Assembly (NCBI GenBank): GCA_018238625.1
Contig: JABCSY010000017.1
Coordinates: forward strand, 1-51,797
Direction: 5' to 3'
DNA length: 51,797 nucleotides
Source: Promethearchaeota archaeon
GTDB lineage: Archaea; Asgardarchaeota; Lokiarchaeia; Sigyniarchaeales; SOKP01
Each line of letters begins with the position of its first letter. Positions within the stretch are counted from its first letter, which is position 1. The translations under genes and the position numbers were made by a program. The notes under the pieces are model-generated. The model did not search any database, was not told where the DNA came from, and saw nothing but the letters and a program-made list of their open reading frames with translations. This document shows, piece after piece, positions 696-50,944 of this stretch.

Positions 696-2921
696 TCAAG
701 ATTTCAATTCGTAATTTAGGATATCGTCGATTTGTTTTAGTATTAGAGACAAGTTATTGGAAAGGGACTTTTGTATTTTAATTTTAGAAACGTTATTGTT
801 GTTTTTTTTCAGCATACCAATAGTTACGGTTTTGGAGATTTGTTGAGCTTTTTTCGCTAATTCCGCTAGTTTTAAATGATTTTTGTCGTTGATATCAAAC
901 TTTTTTATCGGAACTTCGAAAGGGATTTTAAAAATGTGTCTTGAGCTTTTTTTTATTTTAACTTGTTTCGTCATTAACGGCGAGTTTAGAACTGCTGATA
1001 AGTAATAAGCCTCGTTTAGGTCGTCTGTTGAGTAAAAACTTAAATCTCCGGTTACAATGAAGTCCCCTTGAACGACTGCCGCGTTAACAACCGAGCCCGA
1101 ATTGTTGTAAACTACTTTAATTTTGGATGTTTGTCGTTTATTTGTTAACTTAGACCATCTATTAAGGTTATCCATCAAAGATTCGTTTTTGGTCGTTTCT
1201 TTTTTATAGTTCAAATAGATTTCGTTTATCTTATCGTAGAAAATCTTGGCGTTCTTTTCTAACGAGGAGTAATCAAATCTCAAGTCCTCTCTGATTAGCG
1301 GTAAAAAGACGTCGTAATTGTCGTAAACAAAGAATTTCACCAGCTCTGTGCTTTTGATTACTTTAAATATATATTCTTTCTCTACTAACTCGTCTTTGAA
1401 TTCAATTTTATTCCAAGGTTCTTTTGCTCTCTTAAAAATTCGGATGTCCGGACTGATTTTTACCAGAGTGGTATTATATTTTTCGCAATTTATAAATGTT
1501 AAATTCCTAGGGTTTAAATCTGCCCCTTTATGGAAAAGCTTTTTGTATTCGCTAACTTTAATTGGAATTAGGTTTTTATAATCGTCTTCTGTGATCAGTT
1601 TGTTAGTGTAAGTTTTGTCTCCTTTCGTTTCGACAAAATACGGAACCAAGATTTCAGTTTTTTCTAATTTTAGATCTATTAATTCAAAATAAGTTAGTTT
1701 TTTTCTTTTTTCCTTTATTGAAAATAAGTGTACAGGGATTTCTATATTATAATTTTGTAAACTCTCAGCAGACTTTTGAGCAAAGATACAAATAAAATCC
1801 ACGTTGAATACTTTAGTAATTTCGCGAGTAAACTTCCAGATTTTAATGTTATTGAAGCCCTTAAAATTACGGAAACGAGACGCATGAGAGCCATTTATAA
1901 CTCCTTCGGTGATAACAAAGAATATTTTTGAGTCATTTTTCATGTTTGATGTCTTAGCCTTATAGAAAAACAGCGAGGCAATCTCAATATTTAAGACGTT
2001 TTTAGGTCGCGGCTTTATCTCTAGCCTTTCCGATAGATCTTTTATCTTTTTCTGGTAATTTGGAGAATCTACGTCTCTCAAAGTGAACCAAGGAGGATTT
2101 CCAATTATTAAATCAAAACCCTCGTTTACGCTTACTTCTTCCTCGAATAAATAATCGGTTACGTAGAGGTTCAAATCGACTTTGGATGCTTTTTCCTTGA
2201 GTAAGAACAAAAAATTGATTTTAGTTATAAAAATCGAAATCGGATTGATATCGTATCCATGGATGTTATTAAAAGCCGCAATCTTTTCTTTCTCTGAGTT
2301 AGGAGAGTTTAAAATAGTTTTTACAATTTCTACTAAAAAGTTTCCAGAGCCACAGCAAGGGTCGAGGACTTTCGAACCAAATTTATACGATTCTTCAACC
2401 ATTTTTTTGACTAAGAACGGTGGAGTGAAAAACTCTCCAGATTTATGCCTAATGTAAGTGGATAAAAAGCTTTGGATTACGCTATCAAACATATACTCAG
2501 GATTATCGTCTAAAGAAAATATCTCATCAGTAATTAAATTGATCAGGTTATCGAAAGCGAGTGGCTCTAATTCTTCTAAAACATCAAAAATCGGGATGAA
2601 ATAACTAATTTCGTTTCCGATCGCAAAATTAAACTTTTTTTTAATGTCATTCTTCAAATTTTTAAAGAAATTATTTGAAAATTGAGTGGATTGAAATGTT
2701 ATCTCTTGATTTAAGACGTATTTTACCATAAATAATTGTGCTATAAAAAAAATAAGCGAAAAGACTACGTAGAGATGGATGTTAGTGTGCTTTTTTCCGT
2801 AAATTTTAACGAAATAATCAAACCACTCTTTATAATTATCAGACCGCTGGATATCTTTTTTCAGCAAAATTGCTTCAATATATTGTAAATCCTTTTCAAA
2901 CTTAAACAAATCAACAGTCAT
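696..2921 (-). CDS. N6-adenine DNA methyltransferase (type IIG/Eco57I-like MTase plus target-recognition region)
   Basis: GEFFTP, motif I VLDPCCGSGNFL, GYDINP, motif IV IIGNPPW, long C-terminal TRD-like region with YYLSAVLNS. Confidence 0.88.
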   Translation of the reverse strand: MTVDLFKFEKDLQYIEAILLKKDIQRSDNYKEWFDYFVKIYGKKHTNIHLYVVFSLIFFIAQLFMVKYVLNQEITFQSTQFSNNFFKNLKNDIKKKFNFAIGNEISYFIPIFDVLEELEPLAFDNLINLITDEIFSLDDNPEYMFDSVIQSFLSTYIRHKSGEFFTPPFLVKKMVEESYKFGSKVLDPCCGSGNFLVEIVKTILNSPNSEKEKIAAFNNIHGYDINPISIFITKINFLFLLKEKASKVDLNLYVTDYLFEEEVSVNEGFDLIIGNPPWFTLRDVDSPNYQKKIKDLSERLEIKPRPKNVLNIEIASLFFYKAKTSNMKNDSKIFFVITEGVINGSHASRFRNFKGFNNIKIWKFTREITKVFNVDFICIFAQKSAESLQNYNIEIPVHLFSIKEKRKKLTYFELIDLKLEKTEILVPYFVETKGDKTYTNKLITEDDYKNLIPIKVSEYKKLFHKGADLNPRNLTFINCEKYNTTLVKISPDIRIFKRAKEPWNKIEFKDELVEKEYIFKVIKSTELVKFFVYDNYDVFLPLIREDLRFDYSSLEKNAKIFYDKINEIYLNYKKETTKNESLMDNLNRWSKLTNKRQTSKIKVVYNNSGSVVNAAVVQGDFIVTGDLSFYSTDDLNEAYYLSAVLNSPLMTKQVKIKKSSRHIFKIPFEVPIKKFDINDKNHLKLAELAKKAQQISKTVTIGMLKKNNNNVSKIKIQKSLSNNLSLILKQIDDILNYELKS

Positions 2922-3065: not shown

Positions 3066-3677
3066 GTGAACGATTTGGCTTCGCATACAATCCAGTTAGC
3101 AAAAAAGTTCGAGAACGGCGTTTATTTTACGTGCGAAATGTGTGGTTCTTGCTGTCAGGGTTTTAAAGAAGGAGAGGTATATTTATACCAAGACGATATA
3201 AAAAAATTAGCAAAACACTTAAATGTAAAAGGAAATTCAGAATTGAGGGAGTTTGCTAAAAAATACCTTAAAGTAGTTAGCGATTCGTTCTTTTGGAAAG
3301 AACCCGGCGCAACAAGAGCAAAAACTTATAGATATAAAACTCTAGGATTTAAATTTATCGGGGACGACGAGCATTGTCAATTCTTAAAGGACAACGAGTG
3401 CACCGTTCACGAAGCGAGACCCTTCCAATGTCGCGCTTTTCCAATAGGGTGGAACATGTTAATTAATAGCGTCAAAAATTTTATTGATTATTCGAAAAAA
3501 TGTCCCGCGCTTCACAATTCGCTCGAAAATAAAGGGAAATATTATTCAAAAGAAGAAATATTAAAATGGGCAAGCGAAGAATACGAAATCGAGAAAACTT
3601 TTTTTTTTACGATGAAAAAAAACGATTTTAATATTTTTAAAGTGTATTCTTTTTTACCAAAAGATATGGTTTCATAA
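3066..3677 (+). CDS. YkgJ-family CxxCxxCC cysteine-cluster protein
   Basis: FTCEMCGSCC ... CQFL...CTVHEARPFQCRAFP signature. Confidence 0.88.
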   Translation: MNDLASHTIQLAKKFENGVYFTCEMCGSCCQGFKEGEVYLYQDDIKKLAKHLNVKGNSELREFAKKYLKVVSDSFFWKEPGATRAKTYRYKTLGFKFIGDDEHCQFLKDNECTVHEARPFQCRAFPIGWNMLINSVKNFIDYSKKCPALHNSLENKGKYYSKEEILKWASEEYEIEKTFFFTMKKNDFNIFKVYSFLPKDMVS

Positions 3678-4460: not shown

Positions 4461-6857
4461 TTGAAAGTTGGATTGTTTATATGCGATTGTGGTAAAAACA
4501 TTAGCGGTGTAATCGATAACGGTAAATTGATAGAACATTTTGGCTCTTATCTAGACGTTCATGTAATAGGAGATCAATATTTATGCGCAGAATTGGGTTT
4601 AAACAAAATAATTGAGGAAATTAAAGAAAATAAGATCGACCGGGTAGTTATTGCCGCGTGTTCTTTTAAATTACATGGATTGTTGTTCAGAAAAACCATA
4701 GAAAAGGCGGGCATCAATAGATTTCTTATATCCTTCGCAAACATTAGAGAGCAAAATTCTTGGGTTCATAATGACGAGCCTGAGAAAGCTACGAGAAAGG
4801 CAATCGACCAAATCAATATGGCAATTGAACAAGTTAAGCTTCTCATGCCTTTGGAGGTTCAGTATGCTAAAGTTAATCCAGCAACTTTGGTAATTGGGGG
4901 CGGAATTGCCGGTATTAAAGCGGCTATAGTCATTGCAGATGCGGGATATAAAGTATATTTAGTTGAAAGAGACTTAACAATAGGAGGTCACATGGCTCTA
5001 TTTGACAAAACTTTTCCTACGTTAGACTGTTCGATCTGTATATTAGGTCCTCTTATGGTAGAAGTAAAAGATCACCCCAATATTGAGTTGCTTACTTATT
5101 CTGAAATTGAAAATGTAGGGGGTTATGTTGGAAACTTTGATGTAAGAGTAAAAAAACACCCGCGATTTATTAACGAGGAGACTTGCGTAGGTTGCTTTGA
5201 TCTTTGTCGAGATGTTTGTCCAATTGACGTAGAGGATACATTTTTTCCCAGAAAAGCAATTGATGTGGTTTATCCTCAAGCTATACCGCTTTATCCAAAC
5301 ATTATAGAAGAGTTTTGCATCGGTTGTAAGGCGTGCGAGCAAGCGTGTGATCGCGACGCAATCGATTTCGATCAAAAAGCAGAGACAATCGAATTTCAAG
5401 TTGGTACAATTATAGTTGCAACAGGGTTTAAAACATTTGATCCCAGTTTGTTAGGCGAATTGAATTACCAAAGATATGCTGATGTAATCACCACTATGCA
5501 ATTGGAGCGATTACTTAACAACGATGGACCTACTCGTGGAAAATTTGCGAGACCTTCTAACGGAAAAGTGCCTAAGAAAGTATCGTTTGTATTGTGCGTA
5601 GGTTCAAGAAATAAAGTTATTCACCACGATTATTGTAGCCAAGTTTGTTGTAATGTGGCAATTAAACAAGCAGTTCTATTAAAGAAGGAATATCCTGAGA
5701 TTAAAATTAATGTGTATTATACTGATATTCGAGCTATGGGAAAGAATTGCGAGGAATTCTACAATAGATCCCAAGAAACTTTTGGGATTAGGTTTATAAA
5801 AAGCAATATTTCAGCAATTTTAAAAGACGATTTATCAGAAAGCGGAGAATTATTAATTCGGGGCGAGGATGTTATTGAGGACGCGATTTTCGAAAATAGG
5901 ACCGATGTCGTAGTGTTAGCCGTTGGCATCGAACCTGCAGAGGGCACAAAAGAATTAAGTCAATTGTTAAACATATCGCAAGACCCCTATGGTTTTTTAC
6001 TAGAAAAGCATCTGAAAATAAAACCTTCTGAGACCTCTGTGAACGGAATATATATAGCAGGCGTGATACAAGGACCTAAGGACATCCCTAACAGTATAGC
6101 TCAGGCAGAAAGCGCTGCTGCGAAAGCTATCGCTTTAACTTCAAAAAAAGAGGTCGAGTTAGACCCTCATATCGTCTATTTTAATCCAGATGAATGCGAT
6201 CTATGTCGATTATGCGAAAACATCTGCAACTATAACGCTCTAAAAATTGAGAATAATAAATTAATCATCACTCAAGCTAACTGCACAGGATGCGGAGCTT
6301 GTGCCGCAATGTGCCACTCCGACGCGCTGTACATTCCAGGTTTTACTAAAGCGCAATTGAATGCTCAAATCAAAACGGTATTAAAGAAGAAAAGCGAATC
6401 CCCCTTAATAATCGCGTTTCTATGTAATTGGTGCTCTTATATGGGTGCTGACCTTGCTGGTACAAGTAAAATAAATTATCCAAGTAATGTAAGATCTGTG
6501 CACGTAATGTGTACAGCAATGTTGAATCCTTCGCAAGTGTTTGAGGCTTTCTTTAACGGCGCGGACGGCGTATTAATCGCAGGGTGTCACCCACAAGATT
6601 GCCATTACGATACTGGTTTTATGAAGACAACGATTAGATACGAAAGCATAAGAGAAATGCTTGGGGAAGCTGGGATAAACGAAGATCGCATCAAAATAGT
6701 AAGCATATCTGCTGGCGAAGGCGAAAAATTCGCTCAAGTTATTTCCGAATTCAAATCTGAGCTTGGAAAACTGGGTCCAATAAAACCTGGAGAATATGTA
6801 AAACCTGTAATCGCAGAAGAAAAAAAGAAAGAAAAAGTAAAACTGGATGAAATATAA
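4461..6857 (+). CDS. hdrA: Heterodisulfide reductase subunit A fused to a C-terminal MvhD/FlpD domain
   Basis: VGLFICDCG, IAACS, GGGIAG FAD site, KTFPTLDCSIC, several ferredoxin CxxCxxCxxxC motifs, CVGSR..CSQVCC, and C-terminal FLCNWCSYMGADLAG...GCHPQDCHY (MvhD). Confidence 0.93.
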   Translation: MKVGLFICDCGKNISGVIDNGKLIEHFGSYLDVHVIGDQYLCAELGLNKIIEEIKENKIDRVVIAACSFKLHGLLFRKTIEKAGINRFLISFANIREQNSWVHNDEPEKATRKAIDQINMAIEQVKLLMPLEVQYAKVNPATLVIGGGIAGIKAAIVIADAGYKVYLVERDLTIGGHMALFDKTFPTLDCSICILGPLMVEVKDHPNIELLTYSEIENVGGYVGNFDVRVKKHPRFINEETCVGCFDLCRDVCPIDVEDTFFPRKAIDVVYPQAIPLYPNIIEEFCIGCKACEQACDRDAIDFDQKAETIEFQVGTIIVATGFKTFDPSLLGELNYQRYADVITTMQLERLLNNDGPTRGKFARPSNGKVPKKVSFVLCVGSRNKVIHHDYCSQVCCNVAIKQAVLLKKEYPEIKINVYYTDIRAMGKNCEEFYNRSQETFGIRFIKSNISAILKDDLSESGELLIRGEDVIEDAIFENRTDVVVLAVGIEPAEGTKELSQLLNISQDPYGFLLEKHLKIKPSETSVNGIYIAGVIQGPKDIPNSIAQAESAAAKAIALTSKKEVELDPHIVYFNPDECDLCRLCENICNYNALKIENNKLIITQANCTGCGACAAMCHSDALYIPGFTKAQLNAQIKTVLKKKSESPLIIAFLCNWCSYMGADLAGTSKINYPSNVRSVHVMCTAMLNPSQVFEAFFNGADGVLIAGCHPQDCHYDTGFMKTTIRYESIREMLGEAGINEDRIKIVSISAGEGEKFAQVISEFKSELGKLGPIKPGEYVKPVIAEEKKKEKVKLDEI

Positions 6858-6977
6858 AAAATAATAACGATTGACTTCAATTATAAAATACTTTTATATT
6901 TCTAATGTAAATCTTATTAATGATTTTTCTTTTATCAACTAAGATATAAAACAATAAACCTTCCCAATGAAAACGTT

Positions 6978-8261
6978 ATGAAAATTCGAGCTATTACAAT
7001 TGGACAAAAAATACCATATTTAATCGAGGATAAAGAATTCGAAAGTGTAATGGAGCAGAGTCTTAGCAAGTTCAATGCATTCAATAGGGACCTAACGCAA
7101 CAATTTAGCGATGTAGCTATTGAAGTCCAGAGTAAAAGGTTGTGCTCTCAACCGATATTATCTTACGACCAACAGTTGTATGCGAGAAATTTAAATGAAA
7201 CGTTAACGAGGATTCACGAGCAATTAGCTATCTTAGAACGAATCGTATCAAAATACGAGTTTGATTACTTTGCTTCTTGTGCTGTATTAGCGGACGAACA
7301 AATTCAGAAATATGGGATTTACGAAAAATTATTGTTGAATGAAATACCTGCGTTCATTAAAAGAAAAGAAAAATTTTTTAGTTCTTTACAAGTAGCGTCA
7401 ACGGAAAACGGAATCAACTTATCTGCTCTTCGATCAGGGGCTAAAATTATAAAAAAATTATCCGAACCAGATCCTTTTAAAAATCTAAACTTTTGCGTGA
7501 GCTCTAACGTGTCTCCCGATACGCCGTTCTTTCCCGCAGCATATCACGTTTCAGAAAGACCTTCTTTTAGCTTAGCGTTGGAGATGGCAGATGAAGTTGT
7601 GAAAGCTTTTGAAAACTCTAAGAACTTAGAAGAGGCACAAAATAACTTGAGGACAAGGTTTAACGAAATTTACGACAATTTGATGAGAATTTGTGAAGGT
7701 GTGGCTAACAAGCACGACATTGAATTTAACGGAATCGATTTCTCTCCTGCGCCTTATCCTACTGTAGAAAAAAGCATAGGTACGGCCTTCGAAAAACTAA
7801 ACTTCGAATATTTTGGTGCTCACGGCTCTCTTATCGGAGTAGCAATAATAAAAAATGCAATACCCAAAAGAAAAAAAGTTATAGGCTTTTCTGGATTTAT
7901 GCCTTCTGTGCTTGAAGACTATACAATCTCTAAAAGCTTATCAGAAAATAGATTCAATTTAGATACGCTATTGCTGTATGCTACTATTTGTGGAACTGGA
8001 TTAGATTGTGTTCCATTACCAGGTGATATTACCGAAAGAGAACTCTTTTATATTTTATTAGATATATGTACTATTTCATTAAGATTGAAAAAACCACTAA
8101 CAGCTAGACTTATGCCGATTCCGGGTAGAAACGCGGGCGATGTTGTTGATTTTGATTTTGAGTACTTCGCCTCTTCAAAAGTTATGGACATTCGAAGATT
8201 ATCTGATTTGAATGAAAACGATCTTTTTTCTAGTAAAGAAAAGAGCTTCAACTTTTTGTAA
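6978..8261 (+). CDS. DUF711-family protein
   Basis: MKIRAIT start, PFFPAAYH, GIDFSPAP, GFSGFM..VLED, ICGTGLDCVPLPGD, KPLTARLMPIPG. Confidence 0.85.
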   Translation: MKIRAITIGQKIPYLIEDKEFESVMEQSLSKFNAFNRDLTQQFSDVAIEVQSKRLCSQPILSYDQQLYARNLNETLTRIHEQLAILERIVSKYEFDYFASCAVLADEQIQKYGIYEKLLLNEIPAFIKRKEKFFSSLQVASTENGINLSALRSGAKIIKKLSEPDPFKNLNFCVSSNVSPDTPFFPAAYHVSERPSFSLALEMADEVVKAFENSKNLEEAQNNLRTRFNEIYDNLMRICEGVANKHDIEFNGIDFSPAPYPTVEKSIGTAFEKLNFEYFGAHGSLIGVAIIKNAIPKRKKVIGFSGFMPSVLEDYTISKSLSENRFNLDTLLLYATICGTGLDCVPLPGDITERELFYILLDICTISLRLKKPLTARLMPIPGRNAGDVVDFDFEYFASSKVMDIRRLSDLNENDLFSSKEKSFNFL

Positions 8262-8329
8262 TATTTTAAGAATGAATCTATCCTAAGATTTATTGTTAAA
8301 AATAAATTTAAGAATCTCGAAAAAAAAAT

Positions 8330-8803
8330 ATGGAAAATCTTGTGGATAACACAAAAAAAAGCAAGAAATTAATATTTTCTAACGAAACTTTAGAATATTT
8401 TGATATTGAAATTGATTTTAAACCTGATATAGATCCCAGTGCTAATCATCTTAATAATTTTAGAAAAAACTCAAATTTTCTTAGAGATGAGATGTTAACC
8501 GAACTTAGTCACCTAAAAACACTTATCCTTAACAATCCAGATTTGAAATTAAAAGCCCTCGATGAAGAGGAAAGAGTTATCTTTTTTAATTTTATAAATC
8601 ATTATTCGAGATGTCCTATATGTGGCGCTGCCAATCACTACTCGCATTTAAAAAAAATGTATTTTACTGATGAAAATATAGAACTGAGAGACATTTTAAT
8701 CAATTTTATGCATTCAGAAATAAAAAAACTACAACATCTTAATATTAATATAGGAATTCCTTGTTGTACTTGTTTTAAAAAATATTTGGAAAAAAATAAA
8801 TAA
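8330..8803 (+). CDS. Hypothetical protein with putative Zn site (CPIC ... CCTC)
   Basis: Intact 157-aa ORF with paired Cys motifs. Confidence 0.6.
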   Translation: MENLVDNTKKSKKLIFSNETLEYFDIEIDFKPDIDPSANHLNNFRKNSNFLRDEMLTELSHLKTLILNNPDLKLKALDEEERVIFFNFINHYSRCPICGAANHYSHLKKMYFTDENIELRDILINFMHSEIKKLQHLNINIGIPCCTCFKKYLEKNK

Positions 8804-8814
8804 AAAAATAAGTT

Positions 8815-9078
8815 TTAGTACTTTTCGATTACTTTTCCAGCTTGTAAAATCTCGAAATTGATTTTGTTTCCATCTTCCTCGATTTTCTTAACGCAATCTG
8901 CTTGAATTAAGTAATCTATGTTGTATTTAAAAACACCTTCTTTATCCAAGATATTGTTGGCTTTTAGTTTTTCAAAGAAATCTTCTTGAGATGTTTTTCC
9001 CACCTCATTTAAAACACGTAACATCTCTCGTCTTATTGGATTGTTTACTGCTTTCAAATAAAATGCGTGATCTACCAT
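8815..9078 (-). CDS. Small ArsR-like winged-helix protein
   Basis: LKAVNNPIRREML ... YNIDYL ... ILQAGK; paralogue of the adjacent gene. Confidence 0.75.
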   Translation of the reverse strand: MVDHAFYLKAVNNPIRREMLRVLNEVGKTSQEDFFEKLKANNILDKEGVFKYNIDYLIQADCVKKIEEDGNKINFEILQAGKVIEKY

Positions 9079-9127
9079 TTTTAGCGTTCCTCTTTAGATA
9101 TATAGCTTTTTTGTTTTCATTTTGTCT

Positions 9128-13566: not shown

Positions 13567-14115
13567 TTATCTACGCTTTTTTTGTTCTTCTTTTTCGTGA
13601 TGAAGCATTAGTACAATTCCTAATATTAACATAGCGGAGTCGTCGTCTAAATCGGGCGACATGCTTACTCCGTAATGCCCTCTTAGTAGACTCTTCCATA
13701 ATTTTTTACTAATTTCGGCAACTTCTTTTCCATCTTTTATAATCTTGAACTTCAAGGTGAATATATTACCTTTCATTGTAAAGACAGTATTTTCGTTTGG
13801 ATCCTCAAACCAATAGCTCGGTTTAATTGAAACAAGTTTTCTTTTTAGTTTTCCGACAAATTGATCGTCCACTTTTTCACCACCTTTAAAGAACTTATAA
13901 CTTGAACGCAAAGAAATTATTTTTTCTTGAACAGTTAACACCGGAACATCGCCAAGGTCTCTTATACGGTACGTATTACCGATCTTTATGAGACTTCCTC
14001 GAAAGCTACCGACTTCTTCTTCGTTCATATTAAATATTTTGCCTTTATCGGTTAAAGAAATCATTTTTTCTTTAAGGATAAAGTCTCTTGTATTTAGCAA
14101 CGACATTTTTTTCAC
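13567..14115 (-). CDS. LURP-one-related/scramblase (Tubby-C-like barrel) protein
   Basis: FILKEKMISL, repeated beta-hairpins, KGNIF...F.I...GKEVAEISKK, terminal hydrophobic helix LILGIVLMLH. Likely ATG at 14106. Confidence 0.85.
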   Translation of the reverse strand: MKKMSLLNTRDFILKEKMISLTDKGKIFNMNEEEVGSFRGSLIKIGNTYRIRDLGDVPVLTVQEKIISLRSSYKFFKGGEKVDDQFVGKLKRKLVSIKPSYWFEDPNENTVFTMKGNIFTLKFKIIKDGKEVAEISKKLWKSLLRGHYGVSMSPDLDDDSAMLILGIVLMLHHEKEEQKKRR

Positions 14116-14833: not shown

Positions 14834-15622
14834 TTAGCGATGACGTGGAGCTCCAAATGAACCGGGAAATCTTCCACGACGGTGAGATCCACGACCGATC
14901 ATTGGTCCACTACCCGAAGAGTCATGCATTACGTTATCTATTGAAAGAACAAATCCCAAGAGTATCCTTCTGTCTGTTTCGTTATCTAAAATCTTCAAAG
15001 CGTACGTATCTTTAAAATCAAATAATCCTCCCCCTAAGAAAATATCTCTCCATCGATCAGCTTTTTCTATTTCCGCTACCAATTTTCCTGAAGCAACTTC
15101 ATAGATTTTAAACGACCAGCCAAAAAAGTTCCCTTCGGCCTCGTACCATCTATTTCCCACCTCATCTTCTAAAAAGAATTTTGATTTAAAAAAGGTTAAT
15201 ATTTTCTTCTTAATTCTTGCGATTAATTCTCCCTCTGGAGTTTTTAAATCCTGAGCGCCTCTTGCTGAAATAATTTTACTATGAATCGTAGCAACAACGG
15301 TACCATCAAGTTCTTGGAGTTCAACTCGTCGTCTTATGCTAAAGATTATTCTATGCATTTTTCCGATCATTTGATTGTTTTCATCGAGGATATCGCCCGA
15401 ACCCCAATCCCAATACTTCTCGCTCAAGATGTAAAAGTTTCGATTAATGTCGAATAAACTACCTTTTTTCTGAGGTGTTGGGGTCGGAGCTGAAGAAGGG
15501 GCGCCTTCTACTCCTTTTTCTGGTGCTTTCTTAATTGAAGACAATTCTGTACCGCATTTCTCACAGAACTTTTGTGCTGGATCAGATTCATCTCCACAAT
15601 TTGGGCAAAATTTCACATTCAT
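14834..15622 (-). CDS. Zinc-ribbon + LURP-one-related/scramblase domain protein
   Basis: FCPNCG..FCEKCG, then a barrel with EGNFFGWSFKI, VAEIEK, DTYAL, ILLGFVLSID; Gly/Arg-rich tail. Confidence 0.85.
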   Translation of the reverse strand: MNVKFCPNCGDESDPAQKFCEKCGTELSSIKKAPEKGVEGAPSSAPTPTPQKKGSLFDINRNFYILSEKYWDWGSGDILDENNQMIGKMHRIIFSIRRRVELQELDGTVVATIHSKIISARGAQDLKTPEGELIARIKKKILTFFKSKFFLEDEVGNRWYEAEGNFFGWSFKIYEVASGKLVAEIEKADRWRDIFLGGGLFDFKDTYALKILDNETDRRILLGFVLSIDNVMHDSSGSGPMIGRGSHRRGRFPGSFGAPRHR

Positions 15623-16632: not shown

Positions 16633-18654
16633 CTAGTTTATTAGATGTTTTTTCCATTCTTCTATGCTTTCAACGATATGATTAATATCCACTTCGCTTA
16701 AATGACCCAAATGGGTTTTATATTGGTTGATTTTACTTCTTAACTTGTGGAGAGTAACGCTAAATCCTTTTTTCTCTAAAATTAAGTCCGCAATATTTTC
16801 TAATTCGGTACTAAATTCCTCTCCACTAATGTTTTGTAGCTTTTGTACTAACGATTTAAAAGCAGTATCGATTAACATTCCTACCTCATCGCCAGCCTTT
16901 GGAATCTGTTTTGATGTTTTAGGAGTTTGTTTTGATGCTTTAAGAGCTTGTTTTGATGCCTTAAGAGCTTGTTTTGATGTTTTAGGAGCTTGTTTTGATG
17001 TTTTAGGAGTTTGTTTTAAAGTTTTCTGTTGTGAAGTTTCTTTAACCTTGTCTTGAATCTTTTGAGTTAATTCCGTAACTATATTTTGTGTCTGAGCGAT
17101 ACCTGTTTTCTTTTGGGACGCTTTAAAACGACTAGGCGTAATTGGTTTAGTGGTTTCTACTGTTTTGAAAGTAGTAGTTTCTCTTGGTGTTGACATTATC
17201 CCAAGAGATCTTGGTTTTTCGTGTAGACTCGAACTTGCTTTATCCCACACTGTATTGATAACCGAAAGAATAAGTTTAATTAAAGGTGCGTAATCAGTAG
17301 CAAATCCAACAAAATCTTTTAACGAATCCGGTGAATTTTTCTGGATTATTCCTATAAGTATGTAATTATCGTCGCATTTGATAACGATAACGCTCTCATT
17401 TTTGAGCGTTCTATATTCCAAGTTTTTGATTTCTTTAAATTGTTTAGCATTGCTGTTAGTGTGTGCCTCAGAGGAAGCAATTTTAATTTTAAGAGTTCCC
17501 GAGATATCTTTAAATTCTTCTATCGATAAATAATCTTCAAGATTAGGAACAACTAATAACAAATTCTCTTTAGCATGGGTAATTTTACTTAATATTTCTT
17601 CGTTAACTCTAGAAACACTACTAATGTGCCAAAAATTATCCAGTTTCGTCTTTTCAGAAGATGTAATAATTTTATAAAAACTCACCATTGCTTTGTTAAT
17701 AGGATTATTTAGAGCCGCCACGGAATCGACTGAACTACTAATTATCGCGTTAAAACTGTCAATAATAATGTTTTCGAAGTTTTTAAGATCGCTAGATAAA
17801 TCTTTGTGCTTTTTTTTTACCAATTCTATTGTTTTATTGATTTTAGATTCGTAACTATTTAGCATGTTTAACAATATCATCTGAAAGTCGTCCCGAAATC
17901 GAAAGGTTGATTCAATAATATTATTAAGCGATTCAATTGTGTTATCAAATTCGTCTTTAATTAATTTATGTAAGTTAACAGTAAAATCTTTAAGTATTTT
18001 TTCAAAGCTTTCTTGAAACACAGCTTCAATTACGCTCTTAATCGCTTTTTCAGATTTTTTCAATTCTAAAGATTCGATTTTTACATTTAGATCCTTCTTA
18101 ATTGTGGTAATTAGCTTAATTAAATAAGAAAATTGATTTTGGGTTACACCTTTAATTGTTTTATGTAGTTCATCCAAAACATCTTTTACTATTTTTAAGT
18201 TCTCCATTCCCTGAACAACATCATCTATATCCTGCTTTTGGATAATTACGTCTTCTTCGATGTCTTTTCTTAATTCTTGGGTTGCGTTAAAAGTGGTTTC
18301 TAATTCGATTATCGTATTTTCTTGAAATATTTTCTTTAGAGAGGTTGAAAGTAATTGGTGTATTTGATTTTTAATGCCGTCTAAGTTGGCATTTATATTT
18401 TCGTAATAATTTATAATCGGGTTAATTGGAGGAATGGCTAGGTATTGAAGTAATAAATCAGGGCTTTGAGGATTGACAGGCATTAACAAACCAGCATCTA
18501 TAAGTTCATTTAAAGATTTTGCATATTCTTCCTGAGAGATATTAGGTAAAATAGAATATAGTTCGAACGATGACAAAGGTTTTCTACCAACGCTTTGTAA
18601 ATAAAGTTTCATCGCATTATCTGAAATTTGTATTTTTTTTAAAAATTCTTCCAT
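16633..18654 (-). CDS. TrmB-like wHTH + long helical/coiled-coil region + TrmB/PLD-like domain protein
   Basis: N-terminal LYL...ELY...LNELIDAGLL...YLAIPP, about 250 aa heptad-rich, then ITHAKENLLLVVP effector-like domain, repeats and a C-terminal helical domain. Confidence 0.65.
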   Translation of the reverse strand: MEEFLKKIQISDNAMKLYLQSVGRKPLSSFELYSILPNISQEEYAKSLNELIDAGLLMPVNPQSPDLLLQYLAIPPINPIINYYENINANLDGIKNQIHQLLSTSLKKIFQENTIIELETTFNATQELRKDIEEDVIIQKQDIDDVVQGMENLKIVKDVLDELHKTIKGVTQNQFSYLIKLITTIKKDLNVKIESLELKKSEKAIKSVIEAVFQESFEKILKDFTVNLHKLIKDEFDNTIESLNNIIESTFRFRDDFQMILLNMLNSYESKINKTIELVKKKHKDLSSDLKNFENIIIDSFNAIISSSVDSVAALNNPINKAMVSFYKIITSSEKTKLDNFWHISSVSRVNEEILSKITHAKENLLLVVPNLEDYLSIEEFKDISGTLKIKIASSEAHTNSNAKQFKEIKNLEYRTLKNESVIVIKCDDNYILIGIIQKNSPDSLKDFVGFATDYAPLIKLILSVINTVWDKASSSLHEKPRSLGIMSTPRETTTFKTVETTKPITPSRFKASQKKTGIAQTQNIVTELTQKIQDKVKETSQQKTLKQTPKTSKQAPKTSKQALKASKQALKASKQTPKTSKQIPKAGDEVGMLIDTAFKSLVQKLQNISGEEFSTELENIADLILEKKGFSVTLHKLRSKINQYKTHLGHLSEVDINHIVESIEEWKKHLIN
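16907..17011. repeat. Five tandem 21-bp coding repeats (consensus TGTTTTGATGYYTTARGAGYT)
   Basis: Units start at 16907, 16928, 16949, 16970 and 16991 and encode KQTPKTS/KQALKAS heptads. Confidence 0.92.
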
Positions 18655-18806: not shown

Positions 18807-20204
18807 ATGAGCTCTTATGAGGATGTTTTCTTTTATTTGGATCTAACTAAGGACTTCCTAAAAGCGAAAGAAGTAATTAAAGCAATTAAATATTATATCG
18901 CTGAAAAAAATAAGATTAACATTAGAGGACACTATGGATTATTGATTTTCCAAGAAGAGGGCAACCCTATCTTTATTACGGATAAAAAGGACTCAGACAT
19001 TATAGAAAATACTATCCAAGAAAATTGGAAAACTCGTCCTAAGAAGCGATCTTTTTTCGAAAATGGATTGTTTTATATATTTTCGTACATAGCGGAGACT
19101 ATTAAAAAAAAGTCAAAATACAATCGAATAATCATTATAACAGATACTCCTAGCGATCTATCTGAAGACTATACCGAAGCTTTGTTTAGTTTAGTTTCGA
19201 AAATAAAAGCTTTTCCTACTTTTATAGATATTTTAAGAGTTTCAGAAAAAGAAGAGCGATTTTTTAAAGACGATGTTAAACTAAACATTTTAGCAAGCGA
19301 TACTAAAGGCGGGATCTTTTACATTCACGACCGCGGCGATTTTATGCCTACTATTAAAAGATTAGTTAAGAGCAAGCAATTGGTAAGCACTTTTGAAAAT
19401 CAACACGATAGAATAAAAATTAAGAAAGACGATTACTACTTCTATTCTCATCTAGCAAAAAGTTTAAAACCCGCTCCCCTCAGCGATGTAGGGATAAAAT
19501 GCCACTTCTGTCAAGAAGAAATCTGTCCTTGTTGCGCCGATGTAAGTGATAAACTGTTAATTTGCGAGGAATGTGGTACTAAGTTTCATAGATGTTGCGT
19601 TACAAATTATACAATTCAACATAATATAGGAATACCGCACATTTTTCGATGTCCTAAATGCGATATCCTACTAAAAATAAATCAAGACGATATAGTTTCT
19701 CCTTTCGACGAGAAGATGGAATCTGTTGAAGATTATATAGAAACAAAAGAAATACAACCAGACCAATTAGAAGAAGAAAGTATCACGGCTTCTGATTACT
19801 TAGAAATTGAAGAACCGCTTGAAGAAAAAAAAGAGATACCTGATGTCATAAAAATAGAAGAGTCAGAAACAGAACAGAAAGCAATTAGGATAGGTGGTTT
19901 TTTTGGAACTTACTATAAAGTTAAAAAAGATGGAGATAAACTAGTCTACCAAAAAACAGCTAAACCCAATAACTCAATGAAAGATAGTCAGAAAGTTACA
20001 AAAAACTTAAAAACTATTACAGAACCCAAACTTAAAAAGGCTGAAATACCGCAATATTGGAAACCAGTAGAAGGACGGGATAGAAATAGTACTAATAAAG
20101 GAAAGCCTATCTTTTTTGTTTGCCCCGGATGCGGAACACAAATTAGCGATAAGGATAAAGATCGACATTCATGTCCATTTTGTGGATTTAAATTAGTTGA
20201 TTGA
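18807..20204 (+). CDS. vWA domain + C4HC3 (PHD/RING-like) zinc finger + acidic linker + zinc ribbon protein
   Basis: FFYLDLT, YGLLIF, IIIITD, LASDTKGGIFY (vWA); CHFC..CPCC..CEEC-x4-H-x2-C..FRCPKC; terminal CPGCG..CPFCG. Confidence 0.75.
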   Translation: MSSYEDVFFYLDLTKDFLKAKEVIKAIKYYIAEKNKINIRGHYGLLIFQEEGNPIFITDKKDSDIIENTIQENWKTRPKKRSFFENGLFYIFSYIAETIKKKSKYNRIIIITDTPSDLSEDYTEALFSLVSKIKAFPTFIDILRVSEKEERFFKDDVKLNILASDTKGGIFYIHDRGDFMPTIKRLVKSKQLVSTFENQHDRIKIKKDDYYFYSHLAKSLKPAPLSDVGIKCHFCQEEICPCCADVSDKLLICEECGTKFHRCCVTNYTIQHNIGIPHIFRCPKCDILLKINQDDIVSPFDEKMESVEDYIETKEIQPDQLEEESITASDYLEIEEPLEEKKEIPDVIKIEESETEQKAIRIGGFFGTYYKVKKDGDKLVYQKTAKPNNSMKDSQKVTKNLKTITEPKLKKAEIPQYWKPVEGRDRNSTNKGKPIFFVCPGCGTQISDKDKDRHSCPFCGFKLVD

Positions 20205-20311
20205 ATTTTTAAATTGAGAAATAACAATAAAAATAAATAAAAACTCTAATATTATTTTATAAAACTTTACTTTAATTTAGGATAAAATACAGACTATATT
20301 TTAATATCAAT

Positions 20312-21700
20312 ATGTTTCGCAAAACATCGGTGAACTCAGAGGAATTTATCTTTTATATTGATCTTACGACAGAGTTTTTGAAGAAAAAAAACCTTAGTAA
20401 GAGCATTGGTAGTTTTATTAAAGACAAGGAGAAATTTAACACTTTAAGTTCATATGGTATTTTGCTTTTTCAAGAAGACGATAACCCTATAACTATCTAC
20501 GACGCGAAAGACTTTGAGGCTCTCTCTGATGTTATAGATGAAAAATGGGAAACTAGAGAAACCGAGAAAAGCCTTTTCGAGAATGGTTTATTTGAGATAC
20601 TGGCTTATATTTTTAGAAGAAGTAGAGAAGCCAGAAAGAATTATCGAGTAATAATAATTTCAGACACGCCCAGTTTATTGTCTGAAGATTATCATAACGC
20701 CCTTTACGATCTTTTAATTAAAGCTAAAAAATTTGACGCTTTTATCGATATAATTCGTATAGGTGATCAGAAATTTTATGCTGATGATGTAAAGCTAAAA
20801 GTAGTCGCAAGCGAAACGCACGGAGGTGTGTTTTATTGTACAGAGGCAAAACTATTCTTAAATATTTTAGGGTCTTTAATTCAGAGTAAATCTGAATTTA
20901 TTGTGGTACAACCTGAAGAAGACGATCAAATTTTCGAAGAAGACAAGATATTCTACGAAAAACTCGCTGTGGATTTAATATCTTTAGATTCTGACGAGGA
21001 GGAAAAGTGTGACATTTGCGAAAGAGAGGTCTGTCCCATCTGTGACGCTCATTCAGACGAGATTCACAAATGTTTTAATTGTAACGCAAAATACCACGCT
21101 TGCTGCGCCGCGAGTTATGCGATTGCTAACCCTATCGGATTCAATCATTTGTTTAGATGCGTTCAATGCGATACATTATTGAAGTTAGACGAAGAATACG
21201 TAGAAATGATATATAGGGAAGAACACGAAGAAGAAGGAGAAGCTGAATTGACGGAAATCGGACCTACGGATGAGATCATTATAGAAGAAGAATTTGAAGA
21301 GGAACAAATTGAAGAACAATCATTTGATGAGGATGAAGAAGAATTAGTAATTGGAAAAGAGATATTGGGTCCAGAAAAGCTTAAATCTCCTCCCGGATTG
21401 GTTAAACCTCCTCCTATATTAATTAAACCTCAACCTAATTTGCCCCCTACTAAAAAGGTTAAAGTTGGAGGCTATTTTGGTCAAGAAATAGCTATAAAAA
21501 ATAATAGTTTAAATAATGATCTCGTTCCGCCAGCGACAGAAACCATCGTACGCGATTCTGAAGGAACCACACAAGTAAAAGAAAAAATCTCGATTACCAC
21601 GTTGAAACCCCCTAGAAGGAGTACAATTAAATTGTGTCAAATTTGCGGATTTACTCTAAAAGCTACTTCTCTCTGTCCTAAATGTGGATTTAAGAATTGA
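20312..21700 (+). CDS. Paralogous vWA + C4HC3 zinc finger + acidic/Pro-rich linker + zinc ribbon protein
   Basis: Collinear with the upstream gene: FENGLF, IIISDTPS, ASETHGGVFY, CDIC..CPIC..CFNC-x4-H-x2-C..FRCVQC, CQICG..CPKCG. Confidence 0.75.
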   Translation: MFRKTSVNSEEFIFYIDLTTEFLKKKNLSKSIGSFIKDKEKFNTLSSYGILLFQEDDNPITIYDAKDFEALSDVIDEKWETRETEKSLFENGLFEILAYIFRRSREARKNYRVIIISDTPSLLSEDYHNALYDLLIKAKKFDAFIDIIRIGDQKFYADDVKLKVVASETHGGVFYCTEAKLFLNILGSLIQSKSEFIVVQPEEDDQIFEEDKIFYEKLAVDLISLDSDEEEKCDICEREVCPICDAHSDEIHKCFNCNAKYHACCAASYAIANPIGFNHLFRCVQCDTLLKLDEEYVEMIYREEHEEEGEAELTEIGPTDEIIIEEEFEEEQIEEQSFDEDEEELVIGKEILGPEKLKSPPGLVKPPPILIKPQPNLPPTKKVKVGGYFGQEIAIKNNSLNNDLVPPATETIVRDSEGTTQVKEKISITTLKPPRRSTIKLCQICGFTLKATSLCPKCGFKN

Positions 21701-28272: not shown

Positions 28273-29160
28273 GTGTGCAAAATAGGTAAAGATATACAAA
28301 GTATTTATATTCATCCTGAGGAACACATCCACACCATAGATAAAATACCCAATAATCCAGAAAGGTTTTTCAAATATTTTATAAAACAATTAGAAGCAAA
28401 AGTAATTACTATTCAAGGGGACAAATTTGAAATTAGCGAAATTGGACCTCAGAGTGATTTGTCCACTACATTTCAATTGGTTGGTATGAACCAGGCAACT
28501 TTAGAATTTACAATAAGAATTGAAATAGCATCAGATAAGACTGAAATACATTTTGGATCAAAAATGGAGCTTTTTTGGCAGAACATGCATAAGAAAATCG
28601 TGCAGAAAGTAATGAAAGGAGCCTTTAAAAAAAGCGATCTACTATATTCCTCTATCTTAATTTCCTATATAAAAAATGTGACTACAAAATCTTTAGATTA
28701 TATAAATAGTCTCCCGGATGTAAGCTCTAAACCTACAGAAATAGCTCAAACAGGAGTAGATAATGGAATTTTAGTGTTTATGAGTTATGCAACTAAAGAT
28801 GCACCATTATTTAGAGTAAAAGAAATTGCTGAGGAGCTAACAAAATTCCCAGAGATATTCGATGTTCTCTATTGGCAAGAAGATATGCAAGATAATATCA
28901 TTGAATATATGAATGATAATTTAGGGAGATGTCATGTTGTTCTCCTATTTACTTCTCCTAATGCATTAGATTCTAAACCAGTCAAAAAAGAATGGACTGC
29001 AGCAGATGCTATGGGTAAACCAATTCTACCTATTTTCTTAAAACCCGACCATATTCCACCTCTTTTAAGATCAAGATTGGGTGTTGAATTTGATCAATTT
29101 GATTTTAAAAAGAATATAACTACTATATATGAATTGATTATAAAGAAATCTCAATCTTAA
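28273..29160 (+). CDS. TIR-domain protein with uncharacterised N-terminal domain
   Basis: LVFMSYATKD ... CHVVLLFTSPNALDSKPVKKEW ... ILPIF; the catalytic-position Glu is retained. Confidence 0.88.
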   Translation: MCKIGKDIQSIYIHPEEHIHTIDKIPNNPERFFKYFIKQLEAKVITIQGDKFEISEIGPQSDLSTTFQLVGMNQATLEFTIRIEIASDKTEIHFGSKMELFWQNMHKKIVQKVMKGAFKKSDLLYSSILISYIKNVTTKSLDYINSLPDVSSKPTEIAQTGVDNGILVFMSYATKDAPLFRVKEIAEELTKFPEIFDVLYWQEDMQDNIIEYMNDNLGRCHVVLLFTSPNALDSKPVKKEWTAADAMGKPILPIFLKPDHIPPLLRSRLGVEFDQFDFKKNITTIYELIIKKSQS

Positions 29161-34191: not shown

Positions 34192-35076
34192 ATGCTTCTG
34201 AGAAAAACGATTCTTTTCGATTTAAATCATAACGAGATGCTCGATATTGATTTTTCAGATTTTTCAGATTTTTCAAAACTTCTTCAAAATCTAAATCTCA
34301 AGATTAAAAAAAACGAGAATAAAGATTTAACGAAAAAGGTTTTGGAAAATGTTGATGTTTTAGTTCTGGGCAATCCTATTGACGATTACTTTTCAAACAT
34401 TGAGATCAAGGACATTGTTAATTACGTTAGAACTGGAGGGAATTTAATTCTTATAAGTGAATATGGAGCTGATTATCTTCAAAAAACTAATTTGAATGAT
34501 ATAGCTCCTAATTTTGGTATCCTATTTGAGAAGAATCTCATAAAAGAACAAAATTCCAATAATCATAATCGTTCAAGTATATTACACATTCAAAATTTTC
34601 CTAAAAATAATATTATTAATGGATTAAGAGAAGTTGTAATAGGTGGAACTTGTTCTCTATTCTTAAATAAAGGTGCAAAACCACTTTTACAAACAGATAA
34701 AAGTAATTTCTGGTCAGAACTTTTTAATAGCTCTTCTGAAGAATGGATAAAGGATAAAGAACAACAACACACAATAGCCGCTTATTCTGAATTTGGGCAA
34801 GGCAAGGTCGTTGCTTTTGGCGATATCGACATCTTTTGTAGTGATGATAATATAGGTATTAATTCTCTTGATAATCAGAAGTTCCTACACAATATTTTTA
34901 CCTGGTTGACTGATCCTGTAAAAAGATCAGACGTAATGTCTTTCATCTTAGATCAAATTGGGCAAGTTCAAAACAACGTCAAAGAAATCCATAAAACAAT
35001 GAATAATGTAATTGAAACAATGAGTATTTTGGAAAAAAGGCTACGTCATTTAGAACAGAATCAAAATAGTCATTAA
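34192..35076 (+). CDS. GIFT (GldG/IFT52)/DUF4350-like domain protein with C-terminal coiled coil
   Basis: ILFDLNHNE, DVLVLGNP...F...EI..I..YV..GGNLIL, TNLN......FGI, GKVVAFGDIDIF...DNQKF..NIF.WL. Confidence 0.75.
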   Translation: MLLRKTILFDLNHNEMLDIDFSDFSDFSKLLQNLNLKIKKNENKDLTKKVLENVDVLVLGNPIDDYFSNIEIKDIVNYVRTGGNLILISEYGADYLQKTNLNDIAPNFGILFEKNLIKEQNSNNHNRSSILHIQNFPKNNIINGLREVVIGGTCSLFLNKGAKPLLQTDKSNFWSELFNSSSEEWIKDKEQQHTIAAYSEFGQGKVVAFGDIDIFCSDDNIGINSLDNQKFLHNIFTWLTDPVKRSDVMSFILDQIGQVQNNVKEIHKTMNNVIETMSILEKRLRHLEQNQNSH

Positions 35077-49753: not shown

Positions 49754-50944
49754 TTATTCAAACTTTCTGTTAAAAATATCTATTAAAAATTCTTCTAATT
49801 TAACTGCTGGAATATCTAGTAAAGTAATTTCAAGATGTCGACCTCTCTCTGCTTCCTCAATTCTTACAGTTTTCGAAGAAATAATTTCTAATTGATTCAG
49901 TTGCCGTATATATTTCCTAAAACTCATTTTTACATGTGGTTCTATTGAATAAGTTTCGCATATTATTTGATATTCTTCGAAAGCATCATCAACTAAAGTA
50001 AATGGTTCCTTATAGTTAATTAGAGATCTAGCTATCCCATATAGCGCCAGAAGTTCTTGATCGTTTAATTGATCAATAATATCTCCTCTAAATGTGGGGT
50101 AAACTTCATTTGAAGCTTCTCTAATAATCTCAGCATTTACGCTAGATAAACTATTTTTATCCGCGTAGAGCCCACTCTTTCTCAAAATCTCAATTCCATG
50201 ACGCATATTCTCGTGATCAGCAACAATTTGACTTGTCATATTCAAAATGTCGTCGCTGATAACATACTCTTTAAACGCCTCCTCGCTTCTATATTCTAAA
50301 ATTTGTTTTGCATCGTCAAACTTGTAGGGTTTAAGAGTAATCTTTTCGTTTAATCGGCTTAAAATCCTTTCTGTCTCAATCCTCATCCAGTCTCTGTTAC
50401 GAGATATTAACAAAATCGAGAGTTTAGCATTTTGATGACCGTATGTTTCGGCAATATCTAAAAAAGCTAAAATTTCGTCGGGTTTTAATAAGTGAATTTC
50501 GTCGATAACTAATAACATATAGCCTTTTTCTCTTATTAATTGCGTTAATATTAATTTGATAGCTTCGTCGTCGCTAAAACCCCGCCCAGATCCGTGAGTG
50601 TATTTAGCCAAAAGTTCTCGTACAATTTTACTTTTTGAGCGAAAATTTATACAATTAAAATATTCAACGAAAATATTAACATCTTTTTCTAAGGCAATAC
50701 TCTTAAAATTTTTACCGAAGTATCTTGCTGTAACAGTTTTTCCAACCCCTCCTTTCCCTAAAATTAAGCAACTGATCGTAGGTTGCTCTTTTTCTTCGAG
50801 AATTCTTCTAAAGTTAAATATTAGGCTTTTGATCGCCTCGTCTCGACAATATAACTTTTCCGGTACATAACTCATATCAAGCGAGCTTGCTTTCTTAAAA
50901 ACTGATTTCGTCATGAATTGTTTTCGAAATTCATCCTCGTCCAT
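49754..50944 (-). CDS. cdc6: Orc1/Cdc6-family AAA+ replication initiator
   Basis: YVPEKL.CR, Walker A GKGGVGKT, Walker B VIDEIH, ILSRL, PY, C-terminal winged helix with RGR. Confidence 0.9.
   Translation of the reverse strand: MDEDEFRKQFMTKSVFKKASSLDMSYVPEKLYCRDEAIKSLIFNFRRILEEKEQPTISCLILGKGGVGKTVTARYFGKNFKSIALEKDVNIFVEYFNCINFRSKSKIVRELLAKYTHGSGRGFSDDEAIKLILTQLIREKGYMLLVIDEIHLLKPDEILAFLDIAETYGHQNAKLSILLISRNRDWMRIETERILSRLNEKITLKPYKFDDAKQILEYRSEEAFKEYVISDDILNMTSQIVADHENMRHGIEILRKSGLYADKNSLSSVNAEIIREASNEVYPTFRGDIIDQLNDQELLALYGIARSLINYKEPFTLVDDAFEEYQIICETYSIEPHVKMSFRKYIRQLNQLEIISSKTVRIEEAERGRHLEITLLDIPAVKLEEFLIDIFNRKFE

Follow-up and report, generated by a model that had tools for sequence, protein, structure and literature searches.

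Tandem vWA and RING-type finger paralogues of a Lokiarchaeia-restricted family: candidate docking adaptors, possibly of the ubiquitin system

Introduction

What do two adjacent genes of nearly equal length, both encoding a von Willebrand factor A (vWA) domain followed by zinc-binding modules, do in an archaeon that carries a eukaryote-like ubiquitin system? The pair lies in a stretch of 51,797 nucleotides, here called the window, that comprises positions 1 to 51,797 of the forward strand of contig JABCSY010000017.1 (assembly GCA_018238625.1) of a Promethearchaeota archaeon (Lokiarchaeia; Sigyniarchaeales; SOKP01). Gene A (18807..20204, plus strand) encodes 465 residues and gene B (20312..21700, plus strand) encodes 462; the two are on the same strand with a gap of 107 bases. 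An earlier reading of the letters alone, referred to below as the original prediction, had described two co-oriented genes of about 465 residues sharing one architecture. Both open reading frames (ORFs) and every feature listed there were found: a vWA-like domain, a C4HC3 finger, an acidic linker, a segment around a GGFFG motif and a terminal zinc ribbon. The analysis identifies A and B as tandem paralogues of a vWA-RING-type finger family that is restricted to the Lokiarchaeia. Tentatively, they are read as docking adaptors of a ubiquitin-ligase-like kind, with the eukaryote-like ubiquitin system of the organism as the most likely setting.

Results

A diverged pair within a four-member family

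A and B are paralogous, with 35% identity across 482 columns in BLASTP (E 2e-80). The vWA part, the finger and the zinc ribbon stand at 45%, 44% and 45% identity, respectively, whereas the linkers reach only 31-34%. A has 377 homologues at E<=1e-20 and orthologues that are 56-89% identical; B, the more conserved of the two, has 425 homologues and orthologues that are 59-96% identical.

The source genome (4.29 Mb in 201 contigs) encodes four members of the family, A, B and two shorter proteins, C (391 residues, 1495-2670 of a stretch from contig C156) and D (397 residues, 1489-2682 of a stretch from contig C58). Both C and D have an intact metal ion-dependent adhesion site (MIDAS) of the form DxSRSM and two C4HC3 fingers, and one copy of each is present in nearly every sampled genome of the order. 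When profiles were compared by hhalign, A aligned to C and D with a probability of 99.5% and an E value of 1.9e-22 over 280-290 columns, and B with 99.7% and 8.5e-27 over 290 columns. By these alignments, A and B are classed as diverged members of a family that includes the MIDAS-bearing C and D.

Directly upstream of D lies a 402-residue Gtr1/RagA- and Arf-like GTPase with an N-terminal extension (78-1286 of the same stretch, minus strand), and an MtrH-like gene lies downstream. Elsewhere in the wider family there are fused relatives from metagenomes (P0234, P0211, P0223, P0230 and P0246). Among them are a protein of 519 residues in which a patatin-like phospholipase is fused to a vWA domain of the family type, and E-type members with extensions of about 650 residues, for a total of 1088-1118, that match no recognisable family.

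A vWA fold that has lost its metal site

The vWA fold occupies residues 1-195 of A (18807..19391, plus strand), as judged from hhalign, the AlphaFold2 model and the structural match to p44, and residues 1-200 of B (20312..20911, plus strand), as judged from hhalign and the structural matches to Rpn10, ArnB and p44. The DxSRSM motif of C and D aligns with DLTKDF in A and DLTTEF in B, just as a degenerate MIDAS with DLT in place of DxSxS had been proposed. Of the full signature DxSxS...T...D, the strand-4 Asp (D113) alone is retained, and the Thr of loop 2 is replaced by an ENG motif. The vWA domains of A and B have lost the MIDAS metal site. A vWA domain in this state is most likely a protein-docking surface rather than a metal-dependent ligand binder.

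AlphaFold2 models of full-length A and full-length B were searched with Foldseek and VIA-align. The mean predicted local distance difference test score (pLDDT) was 63.8 for A and 58.6 for B, with the vWA core mostly at 70-95 and the finger blocks at 60-86. In Foldseek, the first 26-27 matches of both models came from TFIIH entries, to their p44/Ssl1 as well as their p34/Tfb4 chains, with E values of 3.8e-9 to about 1e-6 and alignments often spanning 300-368 columns. From about 1e-6 onwards came complement C2 (for B) or Rpn10 (for A), followed by other generic vWA domains. More than 100 vWA chains were matched at a Z score of at least 8, with Z 13-19 over about 170-185 residues, and the vWA fold of A and B is certain.

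The finer ranking differed between the two proteins. For A, VIA-align placed human p44 first (Z 19.3-18.0, root mean square deviation 2.6-3.0 Å, 177-183 residues), the best alignment having Z 19.3 and 2.6 Å over 177 residues. Below it came Ssl1 (17.8-17.1), ArnB (17.5, the next chain outside TFIIH), Rpn10 (17.1-15.7), p34 (16.6-15.8), BABAM1 (16.1) and an integrin I domain (15.7). For B, Rpn10 (16.7), ArnB (16.0), p44 (15.9) and Ssl1 (15.7) were tied within 1 Z unit. In the models, a special likeness to p44 is therefore clear for A and marginal for B.

A family profile built from 56 diverse relatives was also searched against the PDB. Its vWA matches were the Rpn10 vWA domain (E 8.5e-6), BABAM1 (1e-3, over the first 90 positions) and TFIIH p44 (4.5e-3). 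The vWA assignment was thus drawn from the 56-member profile, the hhalign comparison to C and D and the models, A and B by themselves matching no library model. The original prediction had likened two segments of A and B to the helix 1-strand 2 region of the Rpn10/p44/BABAM1 vWA group. In both models these segments lie at the end of helix 1 and in strand 2 of the vWA fold, and the alignment of the family profile to Rpn10 agrees. The likeness to that group is likewise borne out by the profile matches, by the TFIIH entries that lead the Foldseek results and by the Z scores of A for p44 as against the integrin domain. ESM-Atlas neighbours include eukaryotic TF2H2 (0.89) and Tfb4 (0.84) clusters, which are taken as leads only.

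The paralogues C and D resemble known families more openly. Both exceed the Pfam cut-offs for VWA_2, VWA and Ssl1 (PF04056; C/D 38.6-40.3 and 36-37.8 bits, cut-off 27), and D scores 26.6 bits against Tfb4 (cut-off 27). A Pfam scan of A and B gave no Ssl1 match. Searched against the PDB, the C/D profile matched Rpn10 at 3.4e-20, p44 at 8.7e-16, a bacterial vWA protein (4rck) at 1.5e-13 and yeast Ssl1 at about 1e-11, and more weakly BABAM1 (1.5e-7) and integrins (from 9e-5). Among the 11 VWA_2-positive ORFs of the source genome, the Ssl1 cut-off was passed by C and D only. As a control, 14 other genomes were scanned, VWA_2 proteins being present in 12, and the cut-off was reached in none of them. 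In the phylum sample it was reached in 28 of 151 genomes; the matches listed were all ORFs of about 400 residues, at the places of C and D wherever compared. The Ssl1 likeness applies to C and D directly and to A and B only by descent.

The C4HC3 finger

The finger occupies residues 229-292 of A (19491..19682, plus strand) and 230-293 of B (20999..21190, plus strand). In A it reads C232-x2-C235 ... C253-x2-C256-x4-H261-x2-C264 ... F280-R-C282-x2-C285, and the pattern of B is identical; both are as originally described. Seven ligands (C232, C235, C253, C256, H261, C282 and C285) together with R281 are invariant in the 56 family members, and C264 is the eighth ligand of the eight-ligand C4HC3 pattern, which is complete in A and B. 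In B, the residues invariant among orthologues are C233, C236, C241, P242, C244, H252, C254, C257, H262, C264, C265, H279, C283 and C286.

Both fingers contain the additional CxxC, Cys and His that had been pointed out at the outset. These are C240-P-x-C243, C263 and H278 in A and C241-P-x-C244, C264 and H279 in B, and they are invariant or nearly so among 29 orthologues of each protein. In B, one more His belongs to the extra set. Of the 49 family members that have the core finger, 17 contain both the loop CxxC and the extra Cys and 30 contain neither; 2 have the Cys without the CxxC and none has the CxxC without the Cys, a count that is not a statistical test because the rows are related by descent. 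This co-variation fits a third zinc site and suggests that the finger of A and B may have one.

Among the 56 members, Prok-RING_1 was matched in 21 (E down to 1.9e-6) and PHD in 14 (best 5.3e-6); VWA_2 was matched in 3 and Ssl1 in 2. The finger of the family profile matched the MTF2 PHD domain (6e-4), the Arkadia RING domain (1.7e-3), NSE1 (4.5e-3) and the Doa10 RING-CH domain (0.011) in the PDB, and the profile of A orthologues matched the JARID1D PHD domain at E 0.011. The aromatic residue two positions before C7 that characterises PHD fingers is present, F280-R-C282 being nearly invariant. At the Pfam cut-offs for RING E3 domains, A and B had no RING match. D came close, at 28.8 bits (cut-off 29.1), and its second finger alone passes zf-RING_2 (27.7 against 27.3). 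According to a review, prokaryotic RING domains have the C4HC3 arrangement (PMC11354881). By its ligand pattern, the finger of A and B is assigned to the C4HC3 binuclear fingers of the RING/PHD superfamily.

Hydrophobic residues are found at I/L/V or F between C1 and C2, at a Tyr four residues after C6 and, in A, at a Pro after C7. We take these positions to be the ones through which RING domains contact E2 enzymes.

Linker and C-terminal modules

Beyond the finger, A continues with an acidic linker that is predicted to be disordered (residues 293-355, 19683..19871, plus strand; 27% Glu, 11% Asp; pLDDT 23-54) and is poorly conserved. The corresponding linker of B (residues 294-380, 21191..21451, plus strand) is first Glu-rich and then Pro-rich (30% Glu, 12% Pro; pLDDT 28-44), with many length variants among orthologues. 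The acidic, divergent linker of the original prediction is recognisable in the Glu content of 27-30% and in the low identity of A and B in this part.

The next element of A is the segment IRIGGFFG...VKKEGDKLVY (residues 356-385, 19872..19961, plus strand), which is conserved and modelled with beta strands at low confidence (358-362, 368-375 and 378-384, pLDDT <50). B has a KKVxVGGYFG segment, a SITxLKPP motif and the terminal zinc ribbon in residues 381-462 (21452..21697, plus strand), where K381, V383, G386, G387, F389, G390, S427, L431, P433, P434, C442, C445, C455 and C458 are invariant among orthologues. The motif noticed originally as (I/V)x(I/V)GG(F/Y)FG is present as IRIGGFFG in A and VKVGGYFG in B, and its strict form is confined to the A, B and g4-type subfamilies. 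A search of the ESM Atlas with the C-terminal 91 residues of B gave no usable match.

A zinc ribbon, CPxCG...CPxCG in A (residues 436-465, 20112..20201, plus strand), ends both proteins as had been proposed. The ligand pairs are C439-x2-C442 ... C456-x2-C459 in A and C442-x2-C445 ... C455-x2-C458 in B, with the cysteines invariant among orthologues, and Pfam zinc-ribbon models were matched in 10-11 of the 56 family members. Of the 34 matches of the family profile in the source genome, 30 were unrelated proteins that merely end in a zinc ribbon after a disordered linker. Two of these ribbon-tailed proteins are a 583-residue protein (1498-3249 of a stretch from contig C24, minus strand), whose N-terminus looks small-GTPase-like by eye, and a membrane-anchored repeat protein of 575 residues. 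The idea that the GGFFG module is a mobile domain in this genome was ruled out, as the other C-terminal profile matches share only the terminal ribbon.

Phylogenetic range and age of the duplication

The phylum was sampled with 151 genomes, and 28 of them gave a match to the family profile at E <= 1e-10, namely all 25 of the family-level group of the window, both genomes of the sister family and the source genome. None of the 123 sampled genomes of 25 other families was matched at that threshold, and a search with protein D divided the genomes in the same way. Within the class, all 121 sampled genomes were matched, with 3 to 13 matches per genome; outside the order of the window the best E values were only 1e-41 to 1e-49, and 9.8e-6 in one genome. 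Close relatives are labelled Lokiarchaeota or Promethearchaeota (for example Loki_b31, 85% identical to A), and some homologues carry record names such as 'VWA domain-containing', 'RING finger protein', 'E3 ubiquitin-protein ligase' and 'DC1 domain-containing'. A few homologues sharing 56-62% identity with A or B bear Thor-, Hermod-, Hod- or Odinarchaeota names, in conflict with the phylum sample, and these are suspected to be unreliable submitter labels. No description of this family was found in the literature searched, although supplementary tables of Asgard genome papers may list the genes.

The tandem order of A and B is retained in four of seven sampled genera. It was found in 12 of 13 genomes of the window's genus and in 5 of 7 genomes of two more genera, four of them checked gene by gene. 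In the fourth genus the tandem is present with A interrupted by a stop, and three genera are single-copy. An IQ-TREE tree of 35 rows was rooted on C and D, leaving out fragments <380 residues and one duplicate locus. It contained an A clade of 10 rows (support 99/99) and a B clade of 18 rows (97/99) that includes the single-copy genus g6. The single-copy lineages g4 and g7 stand beside these clades without resolved order, and the shorter E-type is sister to all. The placement of A, B and the single-copy lineages in the tree indicates a duplication that is old within one family-level group and yet lineage-specific.

These results bear on the proposal that the pair is ancestral to a eukaryotic one. 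The A/B split falls inside a single family-level group, and a lineage-specific duplication is the outcome that the original prediction had itself named as counting against its idea. The family, too, was not found outside one class, with no match in the 123 sampled genomes of 25 other families of the phylum.

Gene neighbourhood and ubiquitin machinery

Divergent from A lies a gene for a protein of 673 residues (16633..18654, minus strand), a conserved neighbour that is possibly linked in function. A homologue is adjacent in nine of nine loci of the family-level group; in genus g4 it is 25-26% identical and separated by one gene. The single locus available from the sister family, which stops at a contig end, did not show it. 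The N-terminal stretch of the protein resembles a winged helix-turn-helix (wHTH), and its long middle part is helical. The protein further contains a repeat rich in Lys, Gln and Thr (TSKQAPKTSKQ...) and, at the C-terminus, a domain of about 90 residues that is strongly conserved and belongs to no known family. Apart from coiled-coil-like noise, the searches gave a TrmB wHTH match that was weak (E 0.0044) and confined to 2 of 10 members, and a PDB search gave no match.

The genome has a ubiquitin operon (at about 4888..9090 of the stretch 12000-26000 of contig C50) that encodes a ubiquitin-like protein of 111 residues, a ThiF E1 of 416, a UQ_con E2 of 175 and a JAB protease of 262. Its last gene encodes a 372-residue protein with a RING-like stretch and no Pfam match. 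Three UQ_con E2 genes are present in total. An XPD-like helicase gene is found on a contig other than those of A/B and of the operon, and a search of the genome for Tfb2 (PF03849), made without a positive control, gave no match.

The window is otherwise ordinary chromosome with metabolic genes and transporters, and HypB lies downstream. A 294-residue protein (34192..35076, plus strand) matches the IFT52 GIFT domain (E 1.4e-10, 41 bits, cut-off 27.2) and, more weakly, ABC_transp_aux. A TIR_2 domain (E 2.6e-13) forms the C-terminal part of a 295-residue protein (28273..29160, plus strand). Two LURP-one-related (LOR) domain proteins are encoded at 13567..14115 and 14834..15622, both on the minus strand, the second with an N-terminal zinc ribbon. 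At the end of the window a Cdc6/Orc1-type gene and a phage-integrase-family gene stand side by side (49754..50944 and 51101..51736, both minus strand), and an N6 DNA methylase (Eco57I/MmeI-like) lies at the other end (696..2921, minus strand).

Discussion

The reading that we tentatively favour, well short of a firm assignment, makes A and B adaptors without enzymatic activity that serve the organism's ubiquitin system. In this view a partner or a substrate would be bound by the vWA domain. The finger would bring in an E2 charged with ubiquitin, or else contact another vWA domain in the way that the RING domain of p44 binds p34. The disordered acidic linker tethers the small conserved segment and the zinc ribbon, and the ribbon would dock in cis or in trans, on the model of ArnA and ArnB. 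Since the duplication the two proteins have probably worked side by side, possibly as a hetero-oligomer whose single-copy ancestor was homo-oligomeric. In line with this reading, the finger has hydrophobic residues at the presumed E2-contact positions, and the genome encodes ubiquitin, E1 and E2 proteins. Strong purifying conservation is seen in both genes, and the pair has been retained. The p44 RING domain is described as binding the p34 vWA domain in TFIIH (PMC5737387) and the ArnA zinc ribbon as binding the vWA-containing ArnB (PMC12852372). By analogy with these contacts, a hetero-oligomer of A and B would be plausible.

Several observations weigh against a role in the ubiquitin system. 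Neither sequence matched any Pfam, NCBIfam or PADLOC model, and a profile restricted to the orthologues of A, or to those of B, detected neither a vWA domain nor any significant relative in the PDB. For B, the lead of Rpn10 and p44 over generic vWA domains (Z 13-15) is only 1-2 Z units. RING and PHD are indistinguishable by the sequence of the finger, the PHD matches equalling the RING matches, and B has Val or Ile where A has Pro after C7. Of the earlier suggestion that the pair is a PHD/RINGv E3-like adaptor, the C4HC3 finger of RING/PHD type stands, and the choice between RING and PHD does not follow from it. Finally, the ubiquitin operon is on another contig, and the conserved neighbour is a wHTH/coiled-coil protein and no ubiquitin-system gene.

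The most probable of the alternatives is still rather unlikely. It holds that A, B and the 673-residue protein form a regulatory docking module apart from ubiquitin, a signalling or transcription-linked switch in the manner of ArnA-ArnB, in which the finger is a PHD-like peptide reader or purely a protein-protein module. The adjacency in all nine loci and the TrmB signal fit such a switch, as do the equal standing of PHD and RING matches, the place of ArnB among the best structural matches of both proteins and the docking of a zinc ribbon on a vWA protein that is described for ArnAB (PMC12852372). However, the TrmB match is weak and the neighbour has no other recognisable domain, adjacency is by itself no proof of interaction, and the gene was not found at the single sister-family locus. 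Moreover, the neighbourhood contains no FHA domain, kinase or phosphatase.

Less probable still is an Rpn10-like receptor or assembly factor: its vWA domain, devoid of a MIDAS, would attach to the proteasome or to some other large complex while the zinc modules replace ubiquitin-interacting motifs (UIMs) as binders of ubiquitin or ubiquitin-like proteins. The Rpn10 vWA domain is the best sequence match of the family and C/D profiles and the best VIA-align match of B, and the genome has genes for ubiquitin, E1, E2 and JAB. However, p44 ranks above Rpn10 for A, no proteasome genes are linked within the window, and among the families listed in Pfam scans of A, B and the 56 members there was no UIM or other known ubiquitin-binding module, the sole trace being a zf_UBZ match at E 0.27, which is noise.

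A TFIIH-core-like p44/p34 heterodimer that bridges XPD/XPB-type helicases in transcription or repair and descends from the ancestor of the eukaryotic pair is very improbable: p44 and p34 chains lead the Foldseek results of both models over 300-368 columns, p44 leads for A, the ESM-Atlas clusters point the same way as leads only, and an XPD-like gene exists, but the contig of that gene is a different one, no Tfb2/p52 turned up in the search that lacked a positive control, the family was not found in the 123 sampled genomes of other families, the A/B split is lineage-specific with three genera single-copy, and the domain order differs from that of p44.

Should the ubiquitin-adaptor reading hold, the known archaeal E3-like factors would grow beyond the small RING proteins of ubiquitin operons. 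The eukaryotic coupling of a metal-free vWA docking domain with zinc fingers, as in p44, p34 and Rpn10-type scaffolds, would then exist in a prokaryote. The family spans a whole class, and its genes could be cloned in order to learn which substrates Asgard ubiquitylation has. A bolder proposal, to which we give little credence, is that the Lokiarchaeial vWA-finger family is the archaeal sister of the eukaryotic p44/p34/Rpn10 vWA lineage. If so, the vWA-plus-zinc-finger scaffolds of TFIIH and the proteasome lid would descend from an Asgard ubiquitin-system adaptor, the A-B pair would repeat the p44-p34 solution independently, and the restricted range would be due to losses elsewhere among the Asgard archaea. 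The reverse, a transfer out of an early eukaryote, would be noteworthy as well.

Comparison with known systems

TFIIH p44 (GTF2H2, Ssl1) and p34 (GTF2H3, Tfb4) resemble A and B in that zinc modules follow a vWA domain and in that a single organism has paralogues of this vWA-zinc type. The original prediction had equated a vWA domain followed by a RING-like finger with the p44 layout. The sequence of vWA domain and zinc modules agrees with this, but the order of the modules does not, as A and B have a C4HC3 finger and then a zinc ribbon and p44 has a zinc ribbon and then C1_4. C1_4 (PF07975) had no match in A or B, nor was it among the 25 families listed for the 56 members, and A and B match neither Ssl1 nor Tfb4. 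They also differ in having lost the MIDAS, in a long acidic linker and a GGFFG segment that have no counterpart there, and in a duplication restricted to one lineage.

Rpn10 (PSMD4) likewise has a vWA docking domain, which is the best profile match and is close in structure (Z 17.1 for A, 16.7 for B). However, Rpn10 has UIMs after the vWA domain and no zinc fingers, whereas A and B gave no UIM match. BABAM1 (MERIT40), the scaffold of BRISC and BRCA1-A, is similar in using a vWA domain with an incomplete metal site in a ubiquitin-handling complex; it ranks below p44, ArnB and Rpn10 in the comparison with A (Z 16.1) and, to our knowledge, has no finger or zinc ribbon.

Prokaryotic RING domains (Prok-RING_1) and the C4HC3 fingers of RING-CH and PHD type share the ligand pattern and spacing of the A and B finger. 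A and B differ from them in lacking a Pfam match and in the extra CPxC/Cys/His set, which suggests a third zinc. A fusion of a prokaryotic RING-type finger to a vWA domain was not found described in the literature searched.

ArnA-ArnB of Sulfolobus is an archaeal regulatory module built on a vWA protein, to which a zinc ribbon binds (PMC12852372), and the structural likeness of ArnB was as high as Z 17.5 for A and 16.0 for B. A and B differ from ArnB, which combines a beta-sandwich with a C-terminal helical domain and lacks a RING-type finger. In the Arn system, moreover, a separate FHA protein carries the zinc ribbon, and phosphorylation controls the module.

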